Source: an uncultured Actinomycetota bacterium (lineage in GTDB: Bacteria > Actinomycetota > Acidimicrobiia > Acidimicrobiales > RAAP-2). From it: a DNA stretch of 64,000 bases. The DNA lies in assembly GCA_963824265.1 (NCBI GenBank), contig CAWGOO010000002.1, forward strand, positions 316,744-380,743, in the 5' to 3' direction. The number at the start of each line of letters is the position of its first letter. The first letter of the stretch is position 1. Both the position numbers and the translations under genes were made by a program. The notes under the pieces were generated by a model. That model searched no databases. It was not told the DNA's origin and was given only the letters and a program-made list of their open reading frames with translations. Positions 1-51,817 of this stretch are shown here, in pieces.

Positions 1-615
1 GTCCTGGGCACCGACGATCCTCGACCGCTGGAACAGCGACGCCGCACTCTGCGCGGCGATCAGACCGTGGAAGTCCTGCTGGAGTCGGCTCATCGACGCG
101 TCGTCCTGGGCCACGAGCTCCGCGGCTGACTCGCCAGCCCCACCGGCGAGCGCGCCGGCCGAACCGGTGCTGGCGGCTGCAGTCGGTCCGCTGACCATCG
201 CATGCTGTCGGATCTTCTCGAGGATGGTGATCTCGCGATGACCGTCGATGGCGACGGCGGCCACCGCTCGACCTTCGTCCACGGTCGGCTCGGTGTGCAG
301 CGCGCCGAGCCACTGGACGAGCGTCGGGACGAGCGCGTCGAACGAGCGGAGCGACGGCTGGTCGCCGGTGGCCACCGAACCGCGGACCGACGAATCGGCC
401 GCGTAGAACGACTGGACCGCCCGTTCGGAGGAATTGAGGTCACCGCTGATGACGATGGCCGTCGACCGGTAGCTGCTCTCGCGCCCCTGCAACCCGAGGG
501 AGATGGCGACGGTCACGATCAGCGCCAGCACCGGCACGCCGACGATCAACAACGACTTGGTGAGCAGACGGGCGTTGGACCACCGGCGGGCCGTCCACTG
601 CAAGGGGGATGGCAT
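1..615 (-). CDS. Membrane sensor protein, N-terminal part only (TM helix plus CHASE3-like extracytoplasmic domain); continues beyond the left edge
   Basis: My own translation of the minus strand from ATG at 615-613 gives MPSPLQWTARRWSNARLLTKSLLIVGVPVLALIVTVAISLGLQGRESSYRSTAIVISGDLNSSERAVQSFYAADSSVRGSVATGDQPSLRSFDALVP... The frame stays open to base 1, so it is absent from the ORF track. It has one hydrophobic helix followed by a helical region resembling CHASE3. Confidence 0.55.
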   Translation of the reverse strand, partial: MPSPLQWTARRWSNARLLTKSLLIVGVPVLALIVTVAISLGLQGRESSYRSTAIVISGDLNSSERAVQSFYAADSSVRGSVATGDQPSLRSFDALVPTLVQWLGALHTEPTVDEGRAVAAVAIDGHREITILEKIRQHAMVSGPTAAASTGSAGALAGGAGESAAELVAQDDASMSRLQQDFHGLIAAQSAASLFQRSRIVGAQD

Positions 616-722
616 CAAGGTGGCGTCGATCGGCCGGACCGGATTCGGTACTCTCTGACTGCGAACGATCCGCTGGTCTTTGGCGTGGTCAAGAAGGCAG
701 CCTTTTGGGAGGTCGTGACGCA

Positions 723-1808
723 GTGAACGATAGTGCCGAGCCGTCGACCGGCACGGACCACGAAGGCGTGCCGAAGCCGGCGACGGCGCCGTCCAAAGGA
801 CGGGTGCTCGTGGTCGAGGACGACCGGGCGACCCTCCAGTTCGTCATCACCGCCCTGACCCGAGGTGGCTTCACCGTCACGGGCGTCTCGGACGCGCAGC
901 AGGCGCTGGCGGTGCTCGATGACGAGCCGTGGGAGGTGCTGCTGGCCGACATCGGGCTCCCGGACCGGTCCGGCTTCGAGCTGGTCGCCGACGCCCGGCG
1001 CCGACGGCCGCAGATGGCTATCGCCCTGATGACCGCCGACGCCAGCGTCGACGTGGCCGTGCGGGCGCTGCGGATCGAGGTCGACGACTTCCTCCCGAAG
1101 CCGATCTCGCCGACGACGCTCGTCACCCAGGTCGAGCGGCTGGCCGAGCGCCAGCGGACCCGCGACCGAGGTACGGAGCGCGTCCTCGCGGTCGGCGCTC
1201 ACCCCGACGACGTCGAGATCGGCGTCGGTGCCATCTTGTTGAACCACCGCGTGACCGGCGACGACGTCGCCATCGTCACGATGAGCCGCGGGGCGCGCGG
1301 CGGCGAAGCGATCCGCCGGGCCGACGAAGCCGCCCGGGCGGCCCAGATGATCGGGGCCCGACTGTTCCTCGAGGATCTCGAGGACACCCGGATCCCCGAG
1401 GGCGATCCGACGGTTGCGCTCCTCGAGGGCGTCATCAAGGAAGTCCGCCCGACTGTCGTCTACACCCACACGCTGGCCGACTTGCACCAGGACCACCGCA
1501 ACGTGCACCGGGCGACGATGGTCGCCGCCCGCCGAGTGCCGAACGTCTACTGCTACGAGAGCCCGTCGGCGACCGTCGAGTTCCGGCCGGTCCGCTTCGT
1601 CAGCGTCGACGACCATGTCGACGGGAAGATCGACGTCATCGGCGCGTACACCAGCCAGACCGAGGTCCGCCAGTACCTCGCCGAAGATCTCGTCCGGGCC
1701 ACCGCCCGCTACTGGGGCCGGTTCGGGGCGACGAAGTTCTCGGAGCCACTCGAAGTCGTCCGCGACCGGCAGGCCGGCGCGCCGATCGCGGCCGCCGAGA
1801 GCCCATGA
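723..1808 (+). CDS. Response-regulator receiver domain fused to a PIG-L/LmbE-family N-acetylglucosaminyl deacetylase
   Basis: ORF 609..1808. I moved the start to the in-frame GTG at 723 because ATG 609 would overlap the divergent gene start. REC motifs: VLVVEDD, LLADIGLPD (phospho-acceptor Asp), LMTAD, LPKP. C-terminal half carries the PIG-L motifs GAHPDDVEIG and HQDH. Confidence 0.85.
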   Translation: MNDSAEPSTGTDHEGVPKPATAPSKGRVLVVEDDRATLQFVITALTRGGFTVTGVSDAQQALAVLDDEPWEVLLADIGLPDRSGFELVADARRRRPQMAIALMTADASVDVAVRALRIEVDDFLPKPISPTTLVTQVERLAERQRTRDRGTERVLAVGAHPDDVEIGVGAILLNHRVTGDDVAIVTMSRGARGGEAIRRADEAARAAQMIGARLFLEDLEDTRIPEGDPTVALLEGVIKEVRPTVVYTHTLADLHQDHRNVHRATMVAARRVPNVYCYESPSATVEFRPVRFVSVDDHVDGKIDVIGAYTSQTEVRQYLAEDLVRATARYWGRFGATKFSEPLEVVRDRQAGAPIAAAESP

Positions 1809-2878
1809 CGACCGACGACGGTTCGGACGCCGCGATGACCGTTGCTCGATCGACCGGATCAGCTGACCGACCCGACCCGGTCCGCGTGCTCGTCACCGGG
1901 GCCGGCGGTCCGGCGGCGGTGGCGTTTCTCGAAGGGCTCGCCGACGACGGGCAGCTGCCAACCGACTGCTGGGCCGTCGACATCGACCCCTGCGCCGCCG
2001 GCCTCTATCTCGTGCCCCGAGATCGCCGAGCCCTCGTTCCGAGGGGGGACGACGCGGCGTTTGTCGACGTCGTCCTCGAGACGTGCCGGCAGGAGCGGAT
2101 CGACGTCGTCGTGCCGACCGTCGACAGCGAGCTCATCCCCGTCGCCCGTCGGCTCGGTGACTTCGACGACCTCGGCGTGGCGGTTCTCTCGGCGTCGCTG
2201 GCGACGCTCGAGCAGTGCCTCGACAAGTGGGCGCTGCTGCAGGCCTGTGGTCCGGACATCCCGCTCCCGCTGGGTGGGCTCCTCGATGACGACTTCGACC
2301 CGGCGTCGCTCGGCTGGCCGGTGCTGGTGAAGCCGCGCCGGGGCAGTGGATCGAGGGGCATCGCGCTCGTCGAGGACGCGGCCGCCTTCGACCGACTTCC
2401 CCGCAACGGTTCGCAGCTGGTCCAGGAGTACCTGCCCGGGCCCGAGTACTCCGTCGACGTCCTCGCCTACCGGGACGGGCACGTCGCCGCCGCCGTACCG
2501 CGCAGTCGGCTCAAGGTCGACTCCGGGATCGCCGTCGCCGGCTGCTCGCTGCGCCGGCCGGCGCTCCAGGCGGCCGCCGCCGCGGTGGCCCGGACGGTTG
2601 GTCTGACGAGCGTCGCCAACATCCAGTTCCGAGAGGACGCCGACGGGCTGCCCAAGCTGCTCGAGGTCAACCCCCGCTTCCCGGGGGCGATGCCGCTGAC
2701 CGTGGCCAGTGGCGTCAACATGCCGGCGCTGGCCCTGGCCGACCGGCTCGGTCACACCGTGCCGAGGGACGTGCCGTTCCGCTCGATCGCCATGGTCCGG
2801 CACTGGGCGCAGACGTTCCTCTCGGTGGAGGAGTTCGAGGCCACCGGTGTCCCGATGCCGCTCGGGCTCCCGACGTGA
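1805..2878 (+). CDS. ATP-grasp domain protein (carboxylate-amine ligase-like)
   Basis: Internal ATG 1805 of ORF 929..2878, overlapping the upstream stop (ATGA). The first 290 aa of that ORF are an Arg/Pro-rich shadow frame. Motifs VLVKPRRGSGSRGI, QEYLPGPEYSVDV and ANIQFRED..LLEVNPRF are typical of the ATP-grasp fold. Confidence 0.8.
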   Translation: MTTDDGSDAAMTVARSTGSADRPDPVRVLVTGAGGPAAVAFLEGLADDGQLPTDCWAVDIDPCAAGLYLVPRDRRALVPRGDDAAFVDVVLETCRQERIDVVVPTVDSELIPVARRLGDFDDLGVAVLSASLATLEQCLDKWALLQACGPDIPLPLGGLLDDDFDPASLGWPVLVKPRRGSGSRGIALVEDAAAFDRLPRNGSQLVQEYLPGPEYSVDVLAYRDGHVAAAVPRSRLKVDSGIAVAGCSLRRPALQAAAAAVARTVGLTSVANIQFREDADGLPKLLEVNPRFPGAMPLTVASGVNMPALALADRLGHTVPRDVPFRSIAMVRHWAQTFLSVEEFEATGVPMPLGLPT

Positions 2879-2915
2879 CGCCGCCCGGCCGGCGGCGGAT
2901 CGTTCGGTCCTGACC

Positions 2916-4403
2916 GTGTGGGGCACCGTCGGTGACGACATCCTCATCGCCCTCGTGCTCGTCGGCGCGATCCCACTTCTCGTCAACGCCTACCAGTACC
3001 TGCTCATCGGGGCGGTTCGCTGGAAGAACCACTACGGCTCGGTTGGCCCGTACCTGCCCCGCGTCGCCGTCGTCGTGCCGGCCTGGAACGAGGCGGCCGT
3101 CCTCGATGCCTCCGTCGACCGGCTCATGGCCCTCGACTACCCGCCGGACCGGCTCCGCGTCTACGTCGTCGACGACGCCAGTACCGACGGCACCCCGGCG
3201 CTCATGACGGCCAAGGCCCGTCAGTACCCCGGCGCGGTCTTCCACCTCCGGCGCGAGAAAGGCGGCGAGGGTAAGTCGCACACGCTGAACCACGGCCTCT
3301 CGGTCGTGCTCGCCGACGACTGGATGGAAGCGCTCCTCATCATGGACGCCGACGTCATCTATCGGCCGGACTCGCTGCGCAAGATGACCCGGCACCTGGC
3401 CGACGAGCGCGTCGGCGCCGTGACGGCCTACATCAAGGAAGGTTCGGAGCCGAGCCACACGCTGACCCGTTTCATCGAGTACGAGTACATCACCGCCCAG
3501 GCCGCCGGCCGGCGGGCCCAGAACGTGCTCGGTGCGGTCGCCTGTCTGGCCGGCGGGGCCCAGCTCCACTCGCGGGCCAACCTCGAGGCGCTCGGCGGGC
3601 GGATCGACTCGTCCTCGCTAGCCGAGGACACGTTCACGACGTTCAATACGCAGATCGGCGGCCGCCGGGTCGTCTTCGAGCCGAACGCGGTCGCGCTGGC
3701 CGAAGAGCCGGAGCGGCTGAGCGGGCTGTGGAAGCAACGGCTCCGGTGGGCCCGGGGCAATGTCCAGGTGACGTCGACCTACAAGAAGTTGTGGTTCCGG
3801 CCGTCCCCCGTCCACCGGCTGGGCGGGATCTCGTTCGGGCTGATCTGGTTCAGCATCTTCCTGCTCCCGCTGTCGATGATCATCTCGTCGGCCAGCCTCG
3901 TCGTCCTTTACTTCACCGACCTCAACTCCGCCCAACACGTCTTCCGGGCGCTGTGGATCGTCAACGCGCTCTGCTTCGTCTTCACGACCGTCTTCACCTT
4001 GCTCATCGACCGCGCCGCCGGGCGGCGGACGTGGCTGCAGGGCTTCTTCTTCCCCGGATCCGTCTCGCTGCTGATCATCCTCTACACCTGCTTCCCGACG
4101 GCCTTCCACTGGCTCCTCGGCCGTTTCGAGAACGTCACCCACTGGGAGCTGACCATCGACCAGCGGCACGACGTCATGCTGTTCGCCTACGTCTGGGTCG
4201 CCGGCTGCATGCTGGCGGCCTATCTCGTCAAGAAGATCGACGACGGCGGCGCCCACCGGACCGCCGCCGGGCTGCTCTACGTCGTTGGCTACGGACCGAT
4301 CCTGTGCGTCGTCACGCTCGCCGCCTACGTCAAACAGCTCCGCCGGGCCGAGATGCACTGGGAGAAGACGGAGAAGTCCGGCCGGGTGGCGGTGCCCGAG
4401 TGA
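2916..4403 (+). CDS. Family 2 glycosyltransferase of the processive synthase type (PgaC/IcaA/NodC/chitin-synthase-like), integral membrane
   Basis: ORF 2709..4403 with the start set to in-frame GTG 2916. Motifs: VVVPAWNE, VVDDASTDGT, IMDADV, LAEDT, QRLRWARG (Q-x-x-R-W). One N-terminal and several C-terminal hydrophobic helices. Confidence 0.85.
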   Translation: MWGTVGDDILIALVLVGAIPLLVNAYQYLLIGAVRWKNHYGSVGPYLPRVAVVVPAWNEAAVLDASVDRLMALDYPPDRLRVYVVDDASTDGTPALMTAKARQYPGAVFHLRREKGGEGKSHTLNHGLSVVLADDWMEALLIMDADVIYRPDSLRKMTRHLADERVGAVTAYIKEGSEPSHTLTRFIEYEYITAQAAGRRAQNVLGAVACLAGGAQLHSRANLEALGGRIDSSSLAEDTFTTFNTQIGGRRVVFEPNAVALAEEPERLSGLWKQRLRWARGNVQVTSTYKKLWFRPSPVHRLGGISFGLIWFSIFLLPLSMIISSASLVVLYFTDLNSAQHVFRALWIVNALCFVFTTVFTLLIDRAAGRRTWLQGFFFPGSVSLLIILYTCFPTAFHWLLGRFENVTHWELTIDQRHDVMLFAYVWVAGCMLAAYLVKKIDDGGAHRTAAGLLYVVGYGPILCVVTLAAYVKQLRRAEMHWEKTEKSGRVAVPE

Positions 4404-4425
4404 CCGGCCGAACGGCGGTGCCCGG

Positions 4426-4599
4426 GTGACCGCCGGTACGGAGCCCGGCCGACCGGAACGGACCGACGAGGAGTGGGCGGCGATCTTCCGCGACGACCTC
4501 GCTAGCTCGCGGGCCGCCGAGCGGCGACTGATCTGGATGGAGCTGATCGCCCTCGGCGTCGTGGCCGGCCTCGTCGTCCTGCATTTCGTCTGGCACTAG
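4426..4599 (+). CDS. Small membrane protein (57 aa, single C-terminal TM), hypothetical
   Basis: In-frame GTG 4426 of ORF 4285..4599, 23 nt after the GT2 stop. Sequence: VTAGTEPGRPERTDEEWAAIFRDDLASSRAAERRLIWMELIALGVVAGLVVLHFVWH. No family recognised. Confidence 0.35.
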   Translation: MTAGTEPGRPERTDEEWAAIFRDDLASSRAAERRLIWMELIALGVVAGLVVLHFVWH

Positions 4600-4723
4600 C
4601 CACCTTCGTTCGGCCCGGACGGACGCCCGCCGACCCGGGCCGGGTGAACCCCCCGTGTTACCCTTTCGTCCAGGGGTCACTGGCGGGCGAGTCCCCGGCG
4701 ACGAGCAGTGACCGGAGGCGGAC

Positions 4724-6509
4724 GTGGCCAGTCGGATGACGGACGGCGATTCCTGGCGCGCCGGCGGTCGACCCGGGCCAACCACCGGCCACGCAGTTGG
4801 CACCGGCCTCGGTCCGGACGACTTCCAGCTCGTCTTCGAGGCGATCCCTGGCTGCTACCTGGTGCTCGACCCGTCGCTCACCATCGTCGCGGTCAGTAAC
4901 GCCTATCTCGAGGTCACGGCGAACGAACGGGACCAGATCGTCGGCCGCCATGTCTTCGATGCCTTCCCCGACAACCCCGACGACCCCGACCCGACCGGGG
5001 TAGCGAACCTGCGGGCCTCCCTCGAACGGGTTCTGGCCCGCGCCCAACCCGACACGATGGCCGTCCAGAAGTACGACCTCGAGCGGCCGGCCGGCAGCGG
5101 GCGGTTCGAGGCGCGGTTCTGGAGCCCGGTCAACTCGCCGGTCCTCGGACCGGACGGCCGGGTGGCGTTCGTCATCCACCGGGTCGAAGACGTCACCGAA
5201 CTGATCGGTCGGCGCGGCGAGCCCGGCGAACCGCGCCAAGGCGCCGAGCGGCGGGCGGACCGGCGCGGCGGGCAACCCGACGACCGGCGGGCGGCCGGAA
5301 GCGGTGCCGTCGAACGGCGCCGGGACGACGGGATGGTCATCGATATCCTCCAGCGGTCCCAGGAGCTCGCCCAGGCCAATCGCCAGCTCGAGGACGCCCG
5401 CTCGGCGACCAGCGGGTTCCTCTCCCGAATGAGCCACGAGCTGCGCACCCCCCTTACGTCGATCCTCGGCTTCGGCGAGCTGCTGTCGATGACGGCGCTC
5501 GACGACGACCAGCTCGAGTGGGTCGACCTCTCGCTGACCGCGGCCCGACACCTCCAGGCGCTCCTCGACGACGTGCTCGACATCGCCCGCATCGAGGCTG
5601 GCCACCTGTCGATCTCGCTCGAGCCGGTCTCGCTGGCCTCCATCCTGCACGACGCCTACGAGCTCGCCCAACCGCTGGCCGCGAGCTACCGGGTGCTGAT
5701 CGGCGAGCCGCCGAAGGAAGGTCGGACGCTCTACGTGCTGGCCGACCGTCAGCGCTTGCGCCAGGTACTGCTCAACCTGCTCTCGAACGCGGTGAAGTAC
5801 AACGACGAGCGGGCCCGGGTGACGCTCCGCGTGGAGGTCATCGCCGACGATCGGGTTCGGGTCCACGTCACGAACACCGGCACCGGCCTCACCGAAGAGG
5901 AGCTCGGGCGGCTCTTCGTGCCGTTCGAGCGACTGGGAGCCGAGGAGCGGGGCATCGAGGGGACGGGCCTCGGGCTCGCCCTCTCGGCGGACCTCATGAA
6001 GAGCATGAACGGACGGCTCACCGCGTCGAGCGTCCTCGGTGCCAGCTGCACGTTCACCGTCGAGCTCGCGCTCGCCTATCCGCCGGCCGTCGAGGAATCG
6101 GCTCGAGCCGGCGCGGCCCGGGATGCCCACGCCTACGAGCGCTCCCGGACGGTGCTCTACGTCGAGGACGTCGCGTCGAACGTCAAGCTCGTCGAGCAGA
6201 TCCTGCGTCGGCGACCGAACATCACGTTGGTGTCGACGTCGCGCGGCCACAACGCGTTGGGGCTGGCGAAGGAGCACCGACCGGACCTCGTCCTGCTCGA
6301 CCTGCACCTGCCCGACATCCCCGGCGAAGAGGTCCTCGCCCGGCTCCGGGCCGACGAGGAGACCGACGCCATCCCGGTCATCGTGCTCAGTGCGGACGCC
6401 ACGAGTGTCCATCGCCGAGATTCTGATGGCCGCCGGTGCCGACGAGTACCTGACGAAGCCGATCGGTGTGCGCGAGCTCCTCGACCTGATGGACGAGCGG
6501 TTCGGGTGA
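4724..6509 (+). CDS. Hybrid sensor histidine kinase (PAS - HisKA - HATPase_c - REC); frame broken inside the receiver domain near 6401-6410
   Basis: The frame of ORF 4724..6904 shows a PAS domain ([13 protein letters not shown]), H-box [25 protein letters not shown] and a receiver ([26 protein letters not shown]). After about 6403 it turns Arg-rich. The frame of ORF 6039..6509 supplies the expected receiver end [32 protein letters not shown]. Confidence 0.85.
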
Positions 6510-6904
6510 AGGCGGTCCTCAACGTCCTGTGGCTCGTGCTCTGCGGGTTCTGGCTGGCCATCGGCTACGCCGTGGCCGGCATCGTCATGTGCATCCTCAT
6601 CATCACGATCCCGTTCGGGATCGCCGCTTTCCGACTGGCCGCGTACGTCCTCTGGCCGTTCGGCCGGACGGTCGTCCGCCGGGACGATGCCGGCGCCGCG
6701 TCGACCGTCGGCAACGTCATCTGGTTCATCCTGGCCGGCTTGTGGATCGCCATCGCCCACATCGTGACCGGCGTCGTGCTCTGCCTGACGATCATCGGTA
6801 TCCCGCTCGGGATCGCCAACATCAAGCTCGCCGCCGTCGCCGTCGCTCCGTTGGGAAAGGACATCGTCGCCACCGACGACCCGCGGCTCCAACTCGCCGA
6901 CTGA
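6506..6904 (+). CDS. yccF: YccF-family (DUF307) inner membrane protein
   Basis: GTG 6506 overlaps the kinase stop (GTGA). Two DUF307-type repeats are present: [29 protein letters not shown] and [29 protein letters not shown]. Confidence 0.8.
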
Positions 6905-7142
6905 GCAAGCGGGCGACCTGGTGATCGCCTTCGCTGCGTGGCTGACAGGGGAGGTTGGCTCGCCCCGCAGCCGGGTGCCCTTCCTCCGGCCGCTCGAGGT
7001 CGTCGGCGGCGTGCCCGCCGTCTGTCCGGCCCCGGCGCCGGCGAATGTGGCCGGTGGGGCGAGTGTTGCCCATGTGGCAGGTGCGGCGAAGCGAGCTGAT
7101 CGCTAACATCGTCCTGGGCGGCCTGACAAAGGCTGGTACGGG

Positions 7143-8247
7143 ATGGAGATGAGCCGCAGTTCCGGGTGTTGGACCGGGGGCTTCCACCGCCGGTGGTCGT
7201 CGCCCCTTCCTGCAGTCACATCAGTTGCTGCCACGCGCTCCGGCACGGCGTTCTTGGGCACGGCGTTCCTCGGCACGGTGCTAGTGGGCACGGTGCTAGT
7301 GGGCACGGTGCTGTTGGGAACGGTCCTCGTCGGTGCGATCGGGATCGGCGATGCCGGCGCCAGCCCGACGGCGACGAGCCAAGCTGGCGGCAGCCAGCTG
7401 GGCGTACCGGCAACCACGACGTCGCAGTACGAGAACGACGCCAGTCCGGCGGCGCTCTACGCCCAAGGCGAGGCGGCCGGATTCCGCCGGAGCGCAGGGC
7501 ATGGTCATCCTCGACTTCGGCCGACCGGCCGACGAGGACACAACGCTCGGGACGATCACCCAGGACGACACCTTCGCGTCGTTCCCCTCGATCGCCGCGG
7601 CCGTCGAGAGCTACATCGCCGGGTACTTCCGGTCGGCTCCCGCCGGGCTCCGCCTGCACGTGGCCATCGGCACGAACGACAGCTGCGGCACCGGGCAGCC
7701 GTGCGGCAGCGTCGTCTGCGGCTGCGCGTTCGAGCCGCCGAGCTTCTGGACATGGGGCACCTCGCTGGCGTCGGCGGTCGAATCGGTGCAGGCGTGGGCG
7801 ACCCGGACGAAGCAGCAGTCGTCGTTCACGGACACCGTGACGGTCGTCGCCGGCGATGACGTCGAGCCGGCTTTCGACCCGGGCTACCTGAACACCTACA
7901 ACCTGCTGGCCGGTTATGCGGCCGAGGTCGGCGGCTACCAACCCGCCATGGTCGACTACGGCTCCGCCGAGCCCGGCTATTGGACGCAGGCGCAGCTGCT
8001 CAAGGTGGCGGACGGGTTCCGACCCGATGTCGTCTTCCCGGAGCTCTACTTTCCGACACACGTCGCCGAGTGGGCGTCGCTGGTCGGCTACGCCAAAGCC
8101 CACGGTCAGAACATGACGATCTTCGGCGTGCTCACCCAAGCGCCGGACGGCCAGACATCGGCGACGAGCTACACGTCGATCGAGCGGGCGATCGCGCCGA
8201 TCACCGGCCAGTCGTCGATCCAGTGGACGTCGAACATCGGCCCCTGA
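7143..8247 (+). CDS. Secreted or membrane-anchored hypothetical protein; frame break near 7491
   Basis: The N-terminus from ORF 7143..7859 has a hydrophobic anchor built from pentapeptide repeats, then ..YAQGEAAGFRR. The rest comes from ORF 7333..8247 (AQGMVILDFGRPADEDTTLG...IQWTSNIGP). The join requires a 1-nt shift at about 7491. Confidence 0.65.
7242..7331 (+). repeat. Six tandem 15-bp units (ggcacggyg ytnbtg) inside the CDS, encoding GTAFL-GTAFL-GTVLV-GTVLV-GTVLL-GTVLV
   Basis: Direct reading: ggcacggcgttcttg / ggcacggcgttcctc / ggcacggtgctagtg / ggcacggtgctagtg / ggcacggtgctgttg / ggaacggtcctcgtc. Confidence 0.9.
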
Positions 8248-38549: not shown

Positions 38550-38622
38550 CGCCCCAGGCAGGATTCGAACCTGCGACGCACGGTTTAGGAAACCGACGCT
38601 CTATCCCCTGAGCTACTGGGGC
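38550..38622 (-). tRNA. tRNA-Arg (anticodon CCT)
   Basis: Minus strand: GCCCCAG-TA-GCTC-AGGGGATA-GAGC-G-TCGGT-TTCCTAA-ACCGT-GCGTC-GCAGG-TTCGAAT-CCTGC-CTGGGGC-G. Canonical cloverleaf. CCA is not encoded. Confidence 0.9.
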
Positions 38623-40646
38623 CCGAAAAGCACGCTATCCGGCCCGGACGCGGCGTCGGCGTCCCCACCGTGGCCGGCATCGGCATCGGCCGCCGCCCCG
38701 GTAGGCAGCCGAACGAGGACGCCCGTCCCCGCGCCGACCGTCGAGCGGATCGAGATCGTCCCGCCGTGGCGGTCGACGATCGCTTTGGCGACGGACAGAC
38801 CGAGCCCGGTTCCGGGCAGGCCGCGGGTCCGGGCGTTCGACGCCCGGAAGAAACGGGAGAACAGCAGCGCCTGCTCGTCGTCGGGGATGCCGATCCCGGA
38901 GTCGACGATCTCGACCTCCCAACCCCCTTCGTCGCCATCGCCGTTGCGCTCGATCGGCGCGGCGCGGATCGTGACGAAACCATCGGCGGGCGTGAACTTG
39001 ACCGCGTTCGACAGGACGTTCTCGAACAGTTGCGTCAACCGGTCGGCGTCCCCCGCCAGTGGTGGCCCGTCGGTCACGTCGAGCTCGATGGCCACGGACC
39101 GGACGGCCGCGTCGGGGGCGATCGTCCGTTCGGCGTGACGGACGATGGCTGGCACGTCGACCGACGAGACGTCGAGCGGGAGGGCCCGCGACTCGAGGCT
39201 GTCGAGCCCGACGAGGTCACCAGCGAGCCGGAGGAGCCGGTTGACATTGCGGACGATCGCCTCCAGGCAGGCGGCCTGCTCGGTCGCGTCGGCGGCGTCG
39301 AGGTCGTCCCGGTCGAGGAGGTTCCCCAACAGCTGCGTGTAACCGACGATCGACGTCAACGGCGTACGGAGCTCGTGGGAGACCGCGGCGAGCGACTCGG
39401 ACCGGAACGCGTCCATCTCGGCGAGCCGCCGGTTCTCGTCTCGCTCGGATGCAAGCAGGCGCTCCCGCTCGGCTTCGGCGAGCGCTTGATTGGTGATGTC
39501 CCGGTACGTCGAGAGATGGCCGCGGTAGGTGCCCTGCACGTACATCGGGACGAAGTCGCACTCGAGCGTCCGGCCGTCGTAGAGCGTCGCCCGCACCCCG
39601 GCGATCCGCTCCGGCTGGGCCCGCAGCCGGACGACGGCGTCGGCCGCGTCCGGCGGATCGACGACGAGCTTCGCGACGGAGAGACCGATCGACTCGAGCG
39701 TCCGGCCCTCGAGGTCCTCGGGTCGGAACGGGAGGTGGAACAGGTCGACGAACGCCTGGTTGACGAGGACGACCGCCCGGTGTTCGTCCTCGAGCACGAC
39801 CCCGGTCTGCATGCTGTCGATCAACCCGCTCAACCAGCGGTTGCTCGCCTCGAGCGCGGCCAGGGTGTCGTGCCGGCGGGTGACGTCTCGGGCGTGGACG
39901 ACGATCCCGCGGATCGCCGGGTGGTCGACCTGGCTCTCGATGATCGCCTCCATGTACCGCCACGAGCCGTCGGCCGTCCGGAGGCGCATCTCGAACCGCT
40001 CGTCCGGGTCGATCTCGCCGGTGACGGCCCGGGCGAACACCTCCCGGGCGGCGTCGACGTCGTCGGGATGGAGCAGCGGGAAGATGCCGTCTTGGGCATC
40101 GAAGTCCGCCTGGTGGCCGATCAGCCGCAGCGCCCCACCGCTCGACCAGCGCCAGGACCCGTCGGGATTGAGGATCGTGACGATCTCGAGGGACCGGTCG
40201 AGAACGACGTCGAGCAACTGAGCTCCGGACAGTACGGGTCCGACGGCGGTCACGGCGGGGTTGGCGTCGACGATGGCGATCAGGTACCCGTCGATGCCAC
40301 CGTCGCCACCGACCATCGGCACCGTCTGGCCCTCGCAGTGCCGCACGCTCCCGTCGGGCCCGATCGTCCGGAACGCGCCGAACCGGCCCTGGCGTTCGAC
40401 GCTCGACTTCCACCGGTCAGCGACGCTCTCGGCGTCGTCGGGATGCACCGCCAGGTACCACGGCTGGTCTCGCAGCGAGCGCCCCGTCGTCCCGCTGAAG
40501 TCCTCCCAGCGCTGGTTGTGGTACCACGACCGGCCGTCGGGATCGACCGCGACGATGCCGACCGGCGCCACGACCGAGAAGGCGCCGAGGGCTCGCCGGG
40601 CGGCCACCCGTGACGGTTCGTCGCTCAAGTCCCCGCGTCGCTCCAC
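38613..40646 (-). CDS. Multi-PAS sensor histidine kinase (cytoplasmic)
   Basis: ORF 38613..41768 trimmed to GTG 40646; the upstream 370 aa are an Arg/Pro-rich run-on antisense to ahcY. At least three PAS-like modules are present (..WYHNQRWEDFSG.., ..HPDDVDAAREVF.., ..LEDEHRAVVLVNQAF..). H-box [35 protein letters not shown]. Confidence 0.85.
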   Translation of the reverse strand: MERRGDLSDEPSRVAARRALGAFSVVAPVGIVAVDPDGRSWYHNQRWEDFSGTTGRSLRDQPWYLAVHPDDAESVADRWKSSVERQGRFGAFRTIGPDGSVRHCEGQTVPMVGGDGGIDGYLIAIVDANPAVTAVGPVLSGAQLLDVVLDRSLEIVTILNPDGSWRWSSGGALRLIGHQADFDAQDGIFPLLHPDDVDAAREVFARAVTGEIDPDERFEMRLRTADGSWRYMEAIIESQVDHPAIRGIVVHARDVTRRHDTLAALEASNRWLSGLIDSMQTGVVLEDEHRAVVLVNQAFVDLFHLPFRPEDLEGRTLESIGLSVAKLVVDPPDAADAVVRLRAQPERIAGVRATLYDGRTLECDFVPMYVQGTYRGHLSTYRDITNQALAEAERERLLASERDENRRLAEMDAFRSESLAAVSHELRTPLTSIVGYTQLLGNLLDRDDLDAADATEQAACLEAIVRNVNRLLRLAGDLVGLDSLESRALPLDVSSVDVPAIVRHAERTIAPDAAVRSVAIELDVTDGPPLAGDADRLTQLFENVLSNAVKFTPADGFVTIRAAPIERNGDGDEGGWEVEIVDSGIGIPDDEQALLFSRFFRASNARTRGLPGTGLGLSVAKAIVDRHGGTISIRSTVGAGTGVLVRLPTGAAADADAGHGGDADAASGPDSVLFGPQ

Positions 40647-50514: not shown

Positions 50515-51817
50515 ATGGCGGCGCGGCCGAAGGCTGGATCGCGGACCGTACCAGGACGGCGTCGGCGCCCCGTCGTCGGCCGGCTGGCCGCAGTCGTCGC
50601 GCTCGCCGGCACCGGCCTCGGCCTCGTGTCGACCGGTGTGTCGGCGGCCGGCGGCCGCACCGATCCACCGGCCACCGCCGGTCACCCCGGCTGGCGACCG
50701 GCGGGCTCGAAGGACGCGGCCGGCACCGGACCGACCGCGGTCCGCGCCCTCGGCCTAGCAACCGGGGCCGCCGTGCCGGGCACCCGCTCGGCCTACTACG
50801 AGCCACTGCCCGCCACCGGTGTCGAGGCCATGTCGCCGGCGCAGTTCGTCGTGACTGGCCGCGACGCCCCCGACCCGTTCGTGCTCGTCGAGAACGGCAC
50901 CGACTACCTGTACACCAGCCAGGGCAACCAGACCGGGAACAACATCCCGGTCGCCGCCGGCCGCTCGCTGACCACGCTCGGGCCACTCGGCGACGCCATG
51001 CCCGCCCTTCCGGCCTGGGCCGTCCCCAACTTCACGTGGGCGCCGGACGTCCACCGGTTCGGCGACCACTACGTCCTCTACTTCACCGCCATCGTCGCCA
51101 GCACCGATCCCGCCGACGAGTGCATCGGCATCGCCTCCGGCCCGTCGCCGCTCGGTCCGTTCATCGCCGAACCGCAGCCGTTCGTCTGCCAGCTCGACCA
51201 GCACGGATCGATCGACCCGCGGACGTTCACCGACGTCGACGGCACGACGTACCTGATCTGGAAGTCCGACGACAACGCGGACGTGAACGGCACCGAGCTG
51301 ACGAACATCTACTCCCAACCGCTCAGCCCCGACGGCCTCCATCTCGACGGCCAGCCCGACCCGGATCTTCGGGCCCGACGAGCCCTGGCAGGGAAGGATC
51401 GTCGAGGCCCCCGACCTCGTCTGGGCCCAGGGGGCGTACTGGCTCTTCTACTCCGGCGCGTGGTTCAACCAGCCGGACTACGCCATCGGCGTCGCCCGCT
51501 GCGCCGGCCCGCTCGGGCCGTGTGCCGACTCGTCCGCCGAGCCGTTCCTGGCCTCGAACGACCAGGGAGCCGGGCCGGGCGAGCCATCCGTCTGGCGCGA
51601 CGCGGCCGGCATCTGGTTGCTCTACACGCCATGGCGTTCGGACGTCCCCAGCTATACAACCCCGCCCCGGCCGGTGGCGATGCTCCGGCTCGGCTTCGGC
51701 CCGGCCGGGCCGTACGTCGCCGCCCCCACCACCGACGTCCCCCCGCCGACGCCCCGCCGGGCGCCACCGCTCGAACCGCCCGTCCTCCGGCTGGCCGTTG
51801 CCGGGCGGTCACGATGA
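50515..51817 (+). CDS. Glycoside hydrolase family 43-like secreted protein; frame break at about 51358
   Basis: Internal ATG 50515 of ORF 50224..51840. Signal/TM segment LAAVVALAGTGLGLVSTGVSAAG. ..APDPFVLVENGTDYLYTS.., ..WAPDVHRFGDHYVLYF.., ..IDPRTFTDVDGTTYLIWKSDDN.. It continues in the frame of ORF 51617..51817 (TRIFGPDEPWQGRIVEAPDLVWAQGAYWLFYSGAWF..). Confidence 0.75.

Follow-up and report, generated by a model that had tools for sequence, protein, structure and literature searches.

A response regulator with a predicted PIG-L/LmbE deacetylase output heads a conserved glycan-synthesis operon in Actinomycetota

Can a two-component receiver be wired directly to a carbohydrate de-N-acetylase, and what would such an enzyme control in the cell? 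This question is raised by a gene near one end of a 64,000-nucleotide stretch of DNA (the window) from an uncultured bacterium of the Actinomycetota (Acidimicrobiales, RAAP-2; GenBank assembly GCA_963824265.1, contig CAWGOO010000002.1, positions 316,744 to 380,743), which has a G+C content of 69.4%. The gene, here called REC-PIG-L, is an open reading frame (ORF) of 361 aa at 723..1808 on the forward strand, and a conserved operon for glycan synthesis begins with it. In this report, we describe the two domains of its product, the operon in the window and in related genomes, and the sister clades of the enzyme, and we infer from domain content and operon context that a sugar-modifying step may be under direct post-translational control.

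Receiver and PIG-L domains on one polypeptide

A preliminary description of the window had assigned to this ORF an N-terminal receiver, with the motifs VVEDD, LLADIGLPD, MTAD and PKP, and a C-terminal PIG-L deacetylase, with AHPDDVEIG and HQDH. Both assignments held, as every one of these motifs is present and each half matches its Pfam family far above the level of chance. The match to Response_reg (PF00072) spans aa 28-137 (E 3.4e-22; 79.1 bits against a cut-off of 30.2; profile positions 1-110 of 111), and the four motifs supply D33 and D34, D76 (codon 948-950), T104 and K126, the five active-site residues, which are invariant in an alignment of 63 relatives. In the AlphaFold2 (AF2) model, five strands and five helices alternate at a predicted local distance difference test score (pLDDT) above 90, giving the (beta-alpha)5 fold, and a Foldseek search of the PDB aligned the N-terminal half with receiver-domain structures at target-normalised TM-scores (TMt) of 0.90-0.93. 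The receiver is therefore canonical by its sequence and looks phosphorylation-competent.

The PIG-L family (PF02585) is matched by aa 155-268 (E 1.7e-22; 80.7 bits against a cut-off of 28.2; profile positions 1-128 of 129). AHPDD is encoded at 1197-1211 and HQDH at 1485-1496, with H160 at 1200-1202, H255 at 1485-1487 and H258 at 1494-1496; in the same alignment H160, P161, D257 and H258 are invariant, and D162, D163 and H255 are at least 90% conserved. We take His13, Asp15, Asp16, His144 and His147 of MshB to be the counterparts of H160, D162, D163, H255 and H258, respectively. By sequence, the PDB matches of this half are BshB1, TT1542, BC1534 and diacetylchitobiose deacetylase, and by structure Foldseek returned TT1542, BshB, BC1534 and archaeal diacetylchitobiose deacetylases (E about 5e-13; TMt 0.65-0.79; 217-236 columns), the matches to TT1542, BshB and BC1534 reaching a TMt of 0.76-0.79 across 217-230 columns, that is, the whole PIG-L fold. 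With a score above the PF02585 threshold, the metal and catalytic residues in place and a complete Rossmann-like fold, the output of REC-PIG-L is a zinc-type PIG-L/LmbE de-N-acetylase by sequence, with predicted activity, and not a DNA-binding domain. The best NCBIfam match of this half is BshB1 (TIGR04001), at 78.2 bits against an equivalog cut-off of 182.5; a narrower identification as BshB1 was rejected on this score, and no bshA or bshC context was seen.

The preliminary description had also raised the possibility that the two halves are separate genes fused by an indel, and this is not the case. No stop and no frame break lies between the two domains in the ORF, which starts at GTG 723, ends at TGA 1806-1808 and has a Shine-Dalgarno sequence, GGGAGG at 707-712 as read from the sequence, 10 nt 5' of the start codon. 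GTG 723 is also the called start of a 91%-identical homologue (P0001, locus L081), which aligns in one colinear frame, without a frame change, over 369 aa. Concern about an assembly or frameshift artefact joining two genes was reasonable, because about 4.6 kb downstream a kinase gene with a 1-nt frameshift is falsely joined to YccF, and the window thus holds at least one such indel. The same fused ORF, however, recurs in at least 484 species genomes, some of them complete chromosomes from strains in culture, and this figure is a lower bound from a scan of one genome per species. In addition, both Pfam domains lie on one polypeptide in the best 120 of 2364 database relatives, except for P0069 (280 aa), and of the 61 relatives in which both motifs could be placed, 50 have a spacing of 34-35 aa from K126 to H160. 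The recurrence of the fused ORF in independent genomes, the colinear homologue and the conserved linker length therefore rule out an assembly-indel origin, to which we give practically no weight.

The two domains also appear to be held in a defined arrangement. The AF2 model, built from the 63-sequence alignment, has a mean pLDDT of 89.6 and a predicted TM-score (pTM) of 0.73, a value that suggests a defined interdomain arrangement. In this model alpha5 (aa 130-147) leads almost straight into the enzyme-domain strand at 153-158, so that the linker between receiver and PIG-L is helical and of fixed length, and is predicted to be rigid. Sequence and Foldseek searches of the PDB found no structure with both a REC and a PIG-L domain.

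A conserved operon with linked kinases

REC-PIG-L is widespread, and its surroundings are conserved with it. Among the best 80 of the at least 484 genomes almost all are Actinomycetota, from the Acidimicrobiia, Streptosporangiales and Solirubrobacterales to Conexibacter, Blastococcus, Nakamurella and many Micrococcales (e.g. Leifsonia, Microbacterium and Cellulomonas, some of them complete chromosomes), and two are Gammaproteobacteria, a Lysobacterales metagenome-assembled genome (MAG) and Marinicella. Gene neighbourhoods were counted in the 68 of these 80 loci that have at least 6.5 kb of downstream flank. Of these, 65 have an ATP-grasp gene directly 3' of REC-PIG-L, and 61 encode a phosphoesterase of the PHP family (HisJ/YcdX-like), mostly between the ATP-grasp gene and a membrane glycosyltransferase of family 2 (GT2); the GT2 itself is found in 57, and a histidine kinase occurs within the flanks of 54. 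The genes are often linked by overlapping stop and start codons. The deacetylase, the ATP-grasp protein and the phosphoesterase form the most constant core, which may also be the functional core.

A further member of the operon is small. In 55 of 62 loci, Marinicella included, an ORF of 43-98 aa begins 4 nt before the end of the GT2 stop codon (13 nt in one locus), and its products share an R-(R/S)-E-R-x-L motif and one C-terminal transmembrane helix. In the window the corresponding protein reads ...AAERRLIW and then enters a transmembrane helix; no Pfam family matched it. By analogy with IcaD and PgaD, it is probably an accessory subunit of the GT2 synthase.

The window follows this general plan, and its features are collected in Table 1. 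The closest relatives of the operon genes, at 82-96% amino acid identity, come from metagenome assemblies of uncultured Acidimicrobiaceae/Acidimicrobiales, and the two nearest relatives (L081 and L082) have the same gene order by independent gene calls. The ATG of the ATP-grasp gene overlaps the TGA of REC-PIG-L as ATGA, with an alternative in-frame ATG at 1835, and the closest PDB entry of its product, 2pn1, is itself uncharacterised. The GT2 carries DDASTDG, MDADV, AEDTF and QRLRW, which represent the DxD, ED and QxxRW hallmarks of processive GT2 enzymes. Its best named families are PgaC_IcaA (TIGR03937; 118.7 against 422.3 bits) and NodC (84 against 550 bits), and naming it as PgaC or NodC was rejected, as both scores fall below the equivalog cut-offs. 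A PHP gene was found nowhere in the 64-kb window, and it is also missing from the two closest relatives; the next relative, Desertimonas flava, has it. A low-molecular-weight phosphatase (LMWPc) stands in the place of PHP in a marine locus of the sister clades described below, and another LMWPc lies near the Marinicella cluster, so that PHP and low-molecular-weight phosphatases appear to substitute for each other by non-orthologous displacement. In Gram-negative loci, proteins with tetratricopeptide repeats (TPR) are encoded downstream of or near the cluster and are candidate export components; the TPR protein 3' of the Marinicella GT2 has PgaA/BcsC-like matches, which are weak. Between 400 and 7200 of the window no sigma-70 promoter match was found, although a consensus scan says little at 69% G+C, and terminator matches in the same interval are at chance level.

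Candidate phosphodonors flank the operon on both sides. The upstream kinase of L081 aligns with the window at 70% identity (aa 1-203 at 615..1, tblastn), and a full-length homologue of this kinase has the architecture HisKA-HATPase-REC; an upstream kinase match lies within about 4.5 kb, on either strand, in 19 of the 80 loci, and it is divergent in L001-L003, L081, L082 and L077. The downstream kinase lies in an ORF of 726 aa (4724..6904; PAS-HisKA-HATPase-REC-YccF) that is a frameshift fusion, with the receiver broken and YccF falsely joined. Compared with the L081 protein, tblastn switches from frame 2 to frame 3, leaving the last 29 aa (6423..6509) in another frame, and one extra T is present near 6421-6423 (GATTCTG against GACCTG in the 86%-identical L081 gene). 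Either sequencing introduced this base, or a genuine mutation has turned the gene into a pseudogene. The operon of Micrococcales ends with a membrane PAS kinase that is not a hybrid. In the Marinicella MAG (L077), an H-NOX haem-NO protein and a hybrid kinase are encoded divergently at 9-2224 (-), upstream of REC-PIG-L, ATP-grasp, GT2 and TPR genes at 2420-7283 (+), a gene arrangement that suggests a nitric-oxide input to the module in this organism.

Table 1. Coordinates of the features discussed, in window positions unless another locus is named
Feature	Position	Strand	Remarks
Divergent hybrid histidine kinase, N-terminal 205 aa	1..615	-	Cut by window edge; candidate phosphodonor
Divergent intergenic region	616..722	.	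107 bp, holds GGGAGG; from sequence
Receiver domain	801..1163	+	aa 27-147; Pfam, alignment, AF2, Foldseek
PIG-L/LmbE de-N-acetylase domain	1179..1766	+	aa 153-348; Pfam, PDB sequence matches, Foldseek
ATP-grasp carboxylate-amine ligase	1805..2878	+	ATPgrasp_Ter / PylC-like N-terminal domain / PRK12767 type; Pfam, NCBIfam
Membrane GT2 processive synthase, 495 aa	2916..4403	+	Pfam, NCBIfam; start by 96% identity to L081 gene
Small single-pass membrane protein, about 57 aa	4426..4599	+	89% identity to L081 67-aa gene; start codon uncertain
PAS-HisKA-HATPase-REC hybrid kinase, frameshifted	4724..6509	+	Pfam, tblastn; candidate phosphodonor
YccF	6506..6904	+	Separate gene in L081
PHP/LMWPc entries	L083 3933-4415; L077 7885-8349 (-); L082 12065-12832		
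Pseudo-receiver-PIG-L	P0126-P0261 representatives; L083 2926-3918; L085 8001-9059		

Some further features of the window were recorded. Just after YccF, at 6885-7010, tblastn detected a short remnant similar to glycoside hydrolases of family 43 (GH43); L081 has a full GH43 gene 101 bp further downstream, after an ORF of 183 aa, and a GH43 paralogue at 50863-51688 of the window shows a tblastn frame change from 1 to 2, which may be another indel. The sole Rfam match in the window is a tRNA at 38550-38622 (-), adjoined by a histidine-kinase-like gene at 38706-39473 (-).

Pseudo-receivers, the proposed switch and its alternatives

The PIG-L half was searched alone against 1.84 billion cluster representatives, which gave 211 clusters at E <= 1e-30 and 1551 at E <= 1e-10. 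Among the best 150 of these clusters, 69 have a recognisable receiver, 12 look stand-alone (about 205 aa), 23 begin at or near the PIG-L N-terminus and are unclassifiable, many being fragment-like, and in 46 the N-terminus is extended, mostly by about 120-170 aa, in a region that the single-sequence search had missed. A phmmer search with the receiver of the window did not detect these divergent N-terminal domains, and Pfam Response_reg matched just 2 of 42 N-terminally extended sequences; their homology is visible only by profile-profile comparison, in which the extension profile aligned with the family receiver at a probability of 99.5% (hhalign; E 3e-23; 130 columns). In most extensions the acidic pair and the acceptor Asp, Thr and Lys are gone, and such domains may be called pseudo-receivers. 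A marine contig with such a protein encodes PIG-L, a low-molecular-weight phosphatase, ATP-grasp, a phosphohexose mutase and TPR, and another cluster encodes PIG-L, ATP-grasp, an NtrC-type regulator, GT2, TPR and PHP. As judged from these sequences, a receiver fold is the usual fusion partner of this PIG-L clade, and the clade of the window keeps it in a phosphorylation-competent form.

On balance, we consider it fairly probable that REC-PIG-L is a kinase-switched cytoplasmic deacetylase that gates a hexosamine-based secreted glycan at the level of the enzyme. In the mechanism that we propose, an adjacent kinase would phosphorylate D76 and thereby alter deacetylase activity, either by releasing the receiver from the active site, in a CheB-like manner, or by oligomerisation driven by alpha4-beta5-alpha5; oligomers are common among PIG-L enzymes. 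On the cytoplasmic side, the PIG-L domain would strip the N-acetyl group from a precursor or nascent chain containing N-acetylglucosamine (GlcNAc) and leave a free hexosamine amine, which the ATP-grasp ligase would re-acylate, as in the steps from MshB to MshC, from BshB to BshC and from NodB to NodA. The GT2 and its small subunit would then polymerise and export the product. By this route a two-component signal could gate the synthesis or modification of a hexosamine-based secreted glycan without a transcription factor.

Several points weigh against this mechanism. PgaB, IcaB and PelA, the known deacetylases of synthase-dependent polysaccharides, belong to carbohydrate esterase family 4 (CE4) and work outside the cytoplasm, and we know of no direct precedent for a cytoplasmic PIG-L enzyme acting on a polymer. 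The two kinases that flank the operon in the window are both hybrids, and no Hpt domain was seen. Five Leifsonia loci (L015, L033, L040, L041 and L050) encode REC-PIG-L, ATP-grasp, PHP and a kinase, with no GT2 match in their 8-kb downstream flank, and in L050 PHP is followed by the kinase gene; the trio of deacetylase, ligase and phosphatase may therefore be the functional core, and a product other than a polymer is conceivable. Finally, pseudo-receivers have been kept without the phosphorylation residues, and this retention argues for a phosphorylation-independent role of the N-terminal domain.

The last point leads to an alternative in which the receiver or receiver-like domain is a structural or docking module for oligomerisation or for binding to a GT2 complex, with phosphorylation tuning assembly or localisation and the deacetylase being constitutive. 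The extensions of the relatives, homologous to the receiver and mostly devoid of the DD/D/T/K residues, fit such a module, and the pseudo-receiver forms occupy the same kind of operon; however, the five phosphorylation residues are invariant in the 63 sequences of the clade of the window and kinases are linked to its genes, an indication that phosphorylation is under selection there. We regard a purely structural role as unlikely, and note that docking and the kinase-switched deacetylase are not mutually exclusive. A similar standing is given to the proposal that the product is a small glycoconjugate, such as a mycothiol-like or bacillithiol-like glucosamine (GlcN) amide, an acylated chito-oligosaccharide signal or a lipid-linked sugar, and that the receiver controls metabolite flux. 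The set of glycosyltransferase, phosphatase, PIG-L and ATP-dependent ligase would mirror MshA/MshA2/MshB/MshC, a parallel that draws on established knowledge of mycothiol and serves as an analogy only; furthermore, BshB1 is the best NCBIfam match, NodC, an oligosaccharide synthase with a cytoplasmic product, is among the best GT2 matches, and the five Leifsonia loci are without a downstream GT2 match. Against a small product, the BshB1 score lies far under its cut-off (78 against 182.5 bits), the GT2 synthase crosses the membrane several times, carries QxxRW and is coupled to a small membrane subunit, and the Gram-negative loci have TPR proteins, which resemble outer-membrane export porins only weakly. 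The membrane GT2, the small subunit and the TPR proteins therefore fit polymer export better, and a small product seems to us rather improbable.

The chemistry of the C-terminal domain could also differ from de-N-acetylation of GlcNAc, in that other activities are known for the PIG-L fold, for example those of Mca-like amidases, glycopeptide deacetylases and GalB-like hydratases. In Foldseek the GalB hydratase, LnmX and the Dbv21/Orf2 glycopeptide deacetylases score alike, and Pfam membership does not fix the substrate; but GlcNAc-glycoside and chitobiose deacetylases are the best sequence matches, the operon partner is a GlcNAc-polymerase-like GT2, and one relative adds a phosphohexosamine/phosphohexose mutase, and we hold a different activity to be very unlikely. 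A bolder form of the kinase-switched deacetylase can be stated tentatively, and we would not expect it to prove right in full: the operon would be an undescribed, widespread glycan system in which REC-PIG-L acts as an on/off switch that needs neither cyclic di-GMP (c-di-GMP) nor a transcription factor (with nitric oxide acting via H-NOX in Marinicella), the product would be an N-(amino)acylated poly- or oligo-glucosamine new to bacteria, and in sister lineages the switch would have turned into a pseudo-receiver.

Relation to known systems

REC-PIG-L is abundant in public databases and has been annotated automatically there, as 'LmbE family N-acetylglucosaminyl deacetylase/CheY-like chemotaxis protein' at JGI and as 'response regulator' at NCBI (WP_162942065.1). 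The preliminary description had not counted a carbohydrate de-N-acetylase among the well-described enzymatic outputs of response regulators, and full-text literature searching agrees with it, as no functional study of the architecture was returned and the NCBI records seen are named 'response regulator' only. No publication on the architecture or on the operon was found in the literature searched, although a mention in the classic surveys of response regulators or ATP-grasp amidoligases is possible, and REC-PIG-L is not mentioned in the archaeal two-component census, the 2005 census, the lipocone paper or the pseudo-receiver preprint.

The architecture itself would be a modest surprise to a specialist, and the worth of the locus lies rather in the conservation and breadth of the operon, the H-NOX link and the pseudo-receiver series. 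As a rule, exopolysaccharide synthases are regulated through c-di-GMP or at the level of transcription, and a receiver wired directly to a cytoplasmic deacetylase would, if true, act at another point and act faster; the pairing with an ATP-grasp ligase may point to an unusual N-acylated glucosamine as the product. Canonical and pseudo-receiver versions offer a natural series for studying how receivers regulate enzymes. Hundreds of Actinomycetota associated with soil and plants carry the locus, among them Microbacterium, Cellulomonas, Leifsonia and Blastococcus, which can be cultured, and experiments on it are therefore feasible.

Stand-alone PIG-L/LmbE enzymes (BshB1, TT1542, BC1534, MshB and the archaeal diacetylchitobiose deacetylase) are the nearest relatives in catalysis and share with REC-PIG-L the fold and the H-P-D-D ... 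H-x-D-H signature; they are cytoplasmic, their substrates are GlcNAc glycosides, and in thiol biosynthesis the amine that they free is subsequently acylated by a ligase. They differ in having no receiver, in identities of only 18-25% and in their operon contexts. The nearest parallels at the level of the pathway, the systems NodC/NodB/NodA, PgaC/PgaB and IcaA/IcaD/IcaB, likewise pair a GT2 GlcNAc polymerase with a de-N-acetylase, and the Nod system adds N-acylation of the freed amine, while Ica and Pga have a small membrane accessory subunit. In contrast to REC-PIG-L, however, NodB, PgaB and IcaB are CE4 and not PIG-L enzymes, PgaB and IcaB being extracytoplasmic, NodA is an acyltransferase and not an ATP-grasp ligase, and their regulation is by c-di-GMP or at transcription, not by a receiver fused to the deacetylase.

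Receivers fused to metabolic enzymes are a recognised class, which includes a BcsA-like glycosyltransferase of Methanobacteriaceae, MTH_548 (PMC5847659), and since such fusions are already established, REC-PIG-L extends a known class and does not found a new one. The REC-BcsA-like MTH_548, PleD/WspR and PorX also carry a receiver on an enzyme and place it under environmental control, and MTH_548 also targets polysaccharide synthesis; their output domains are others, and none is a deacetylase. Archaeal fusions of REC to enzymes have narrow phyletic distributions (PMC5847659), whereas REC-PIG-L is spread over several classes of Actinomycetota and into Proteobacteria.

The closest parallel in design is CheB, in which an N-terminal receiver is likewise fused directly to a C-terminal alpha/beta hydrolytic enzyme that removes a small acyl or methyl group. 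No CheB-family match was found for REC-PIG-L in Pfam or NCBIfam; CheB is a Ser-His-Asp methylesterase that acts on chemoreceptors in the context of chemotaxis, whereas REC-PIG-L has a metal-dependent PIG-L fold. CheB nevertheless provides the textbook case of enzyme inhibition relieved by phosphorylation, and as such it is the best working model for REC-PIG-L.

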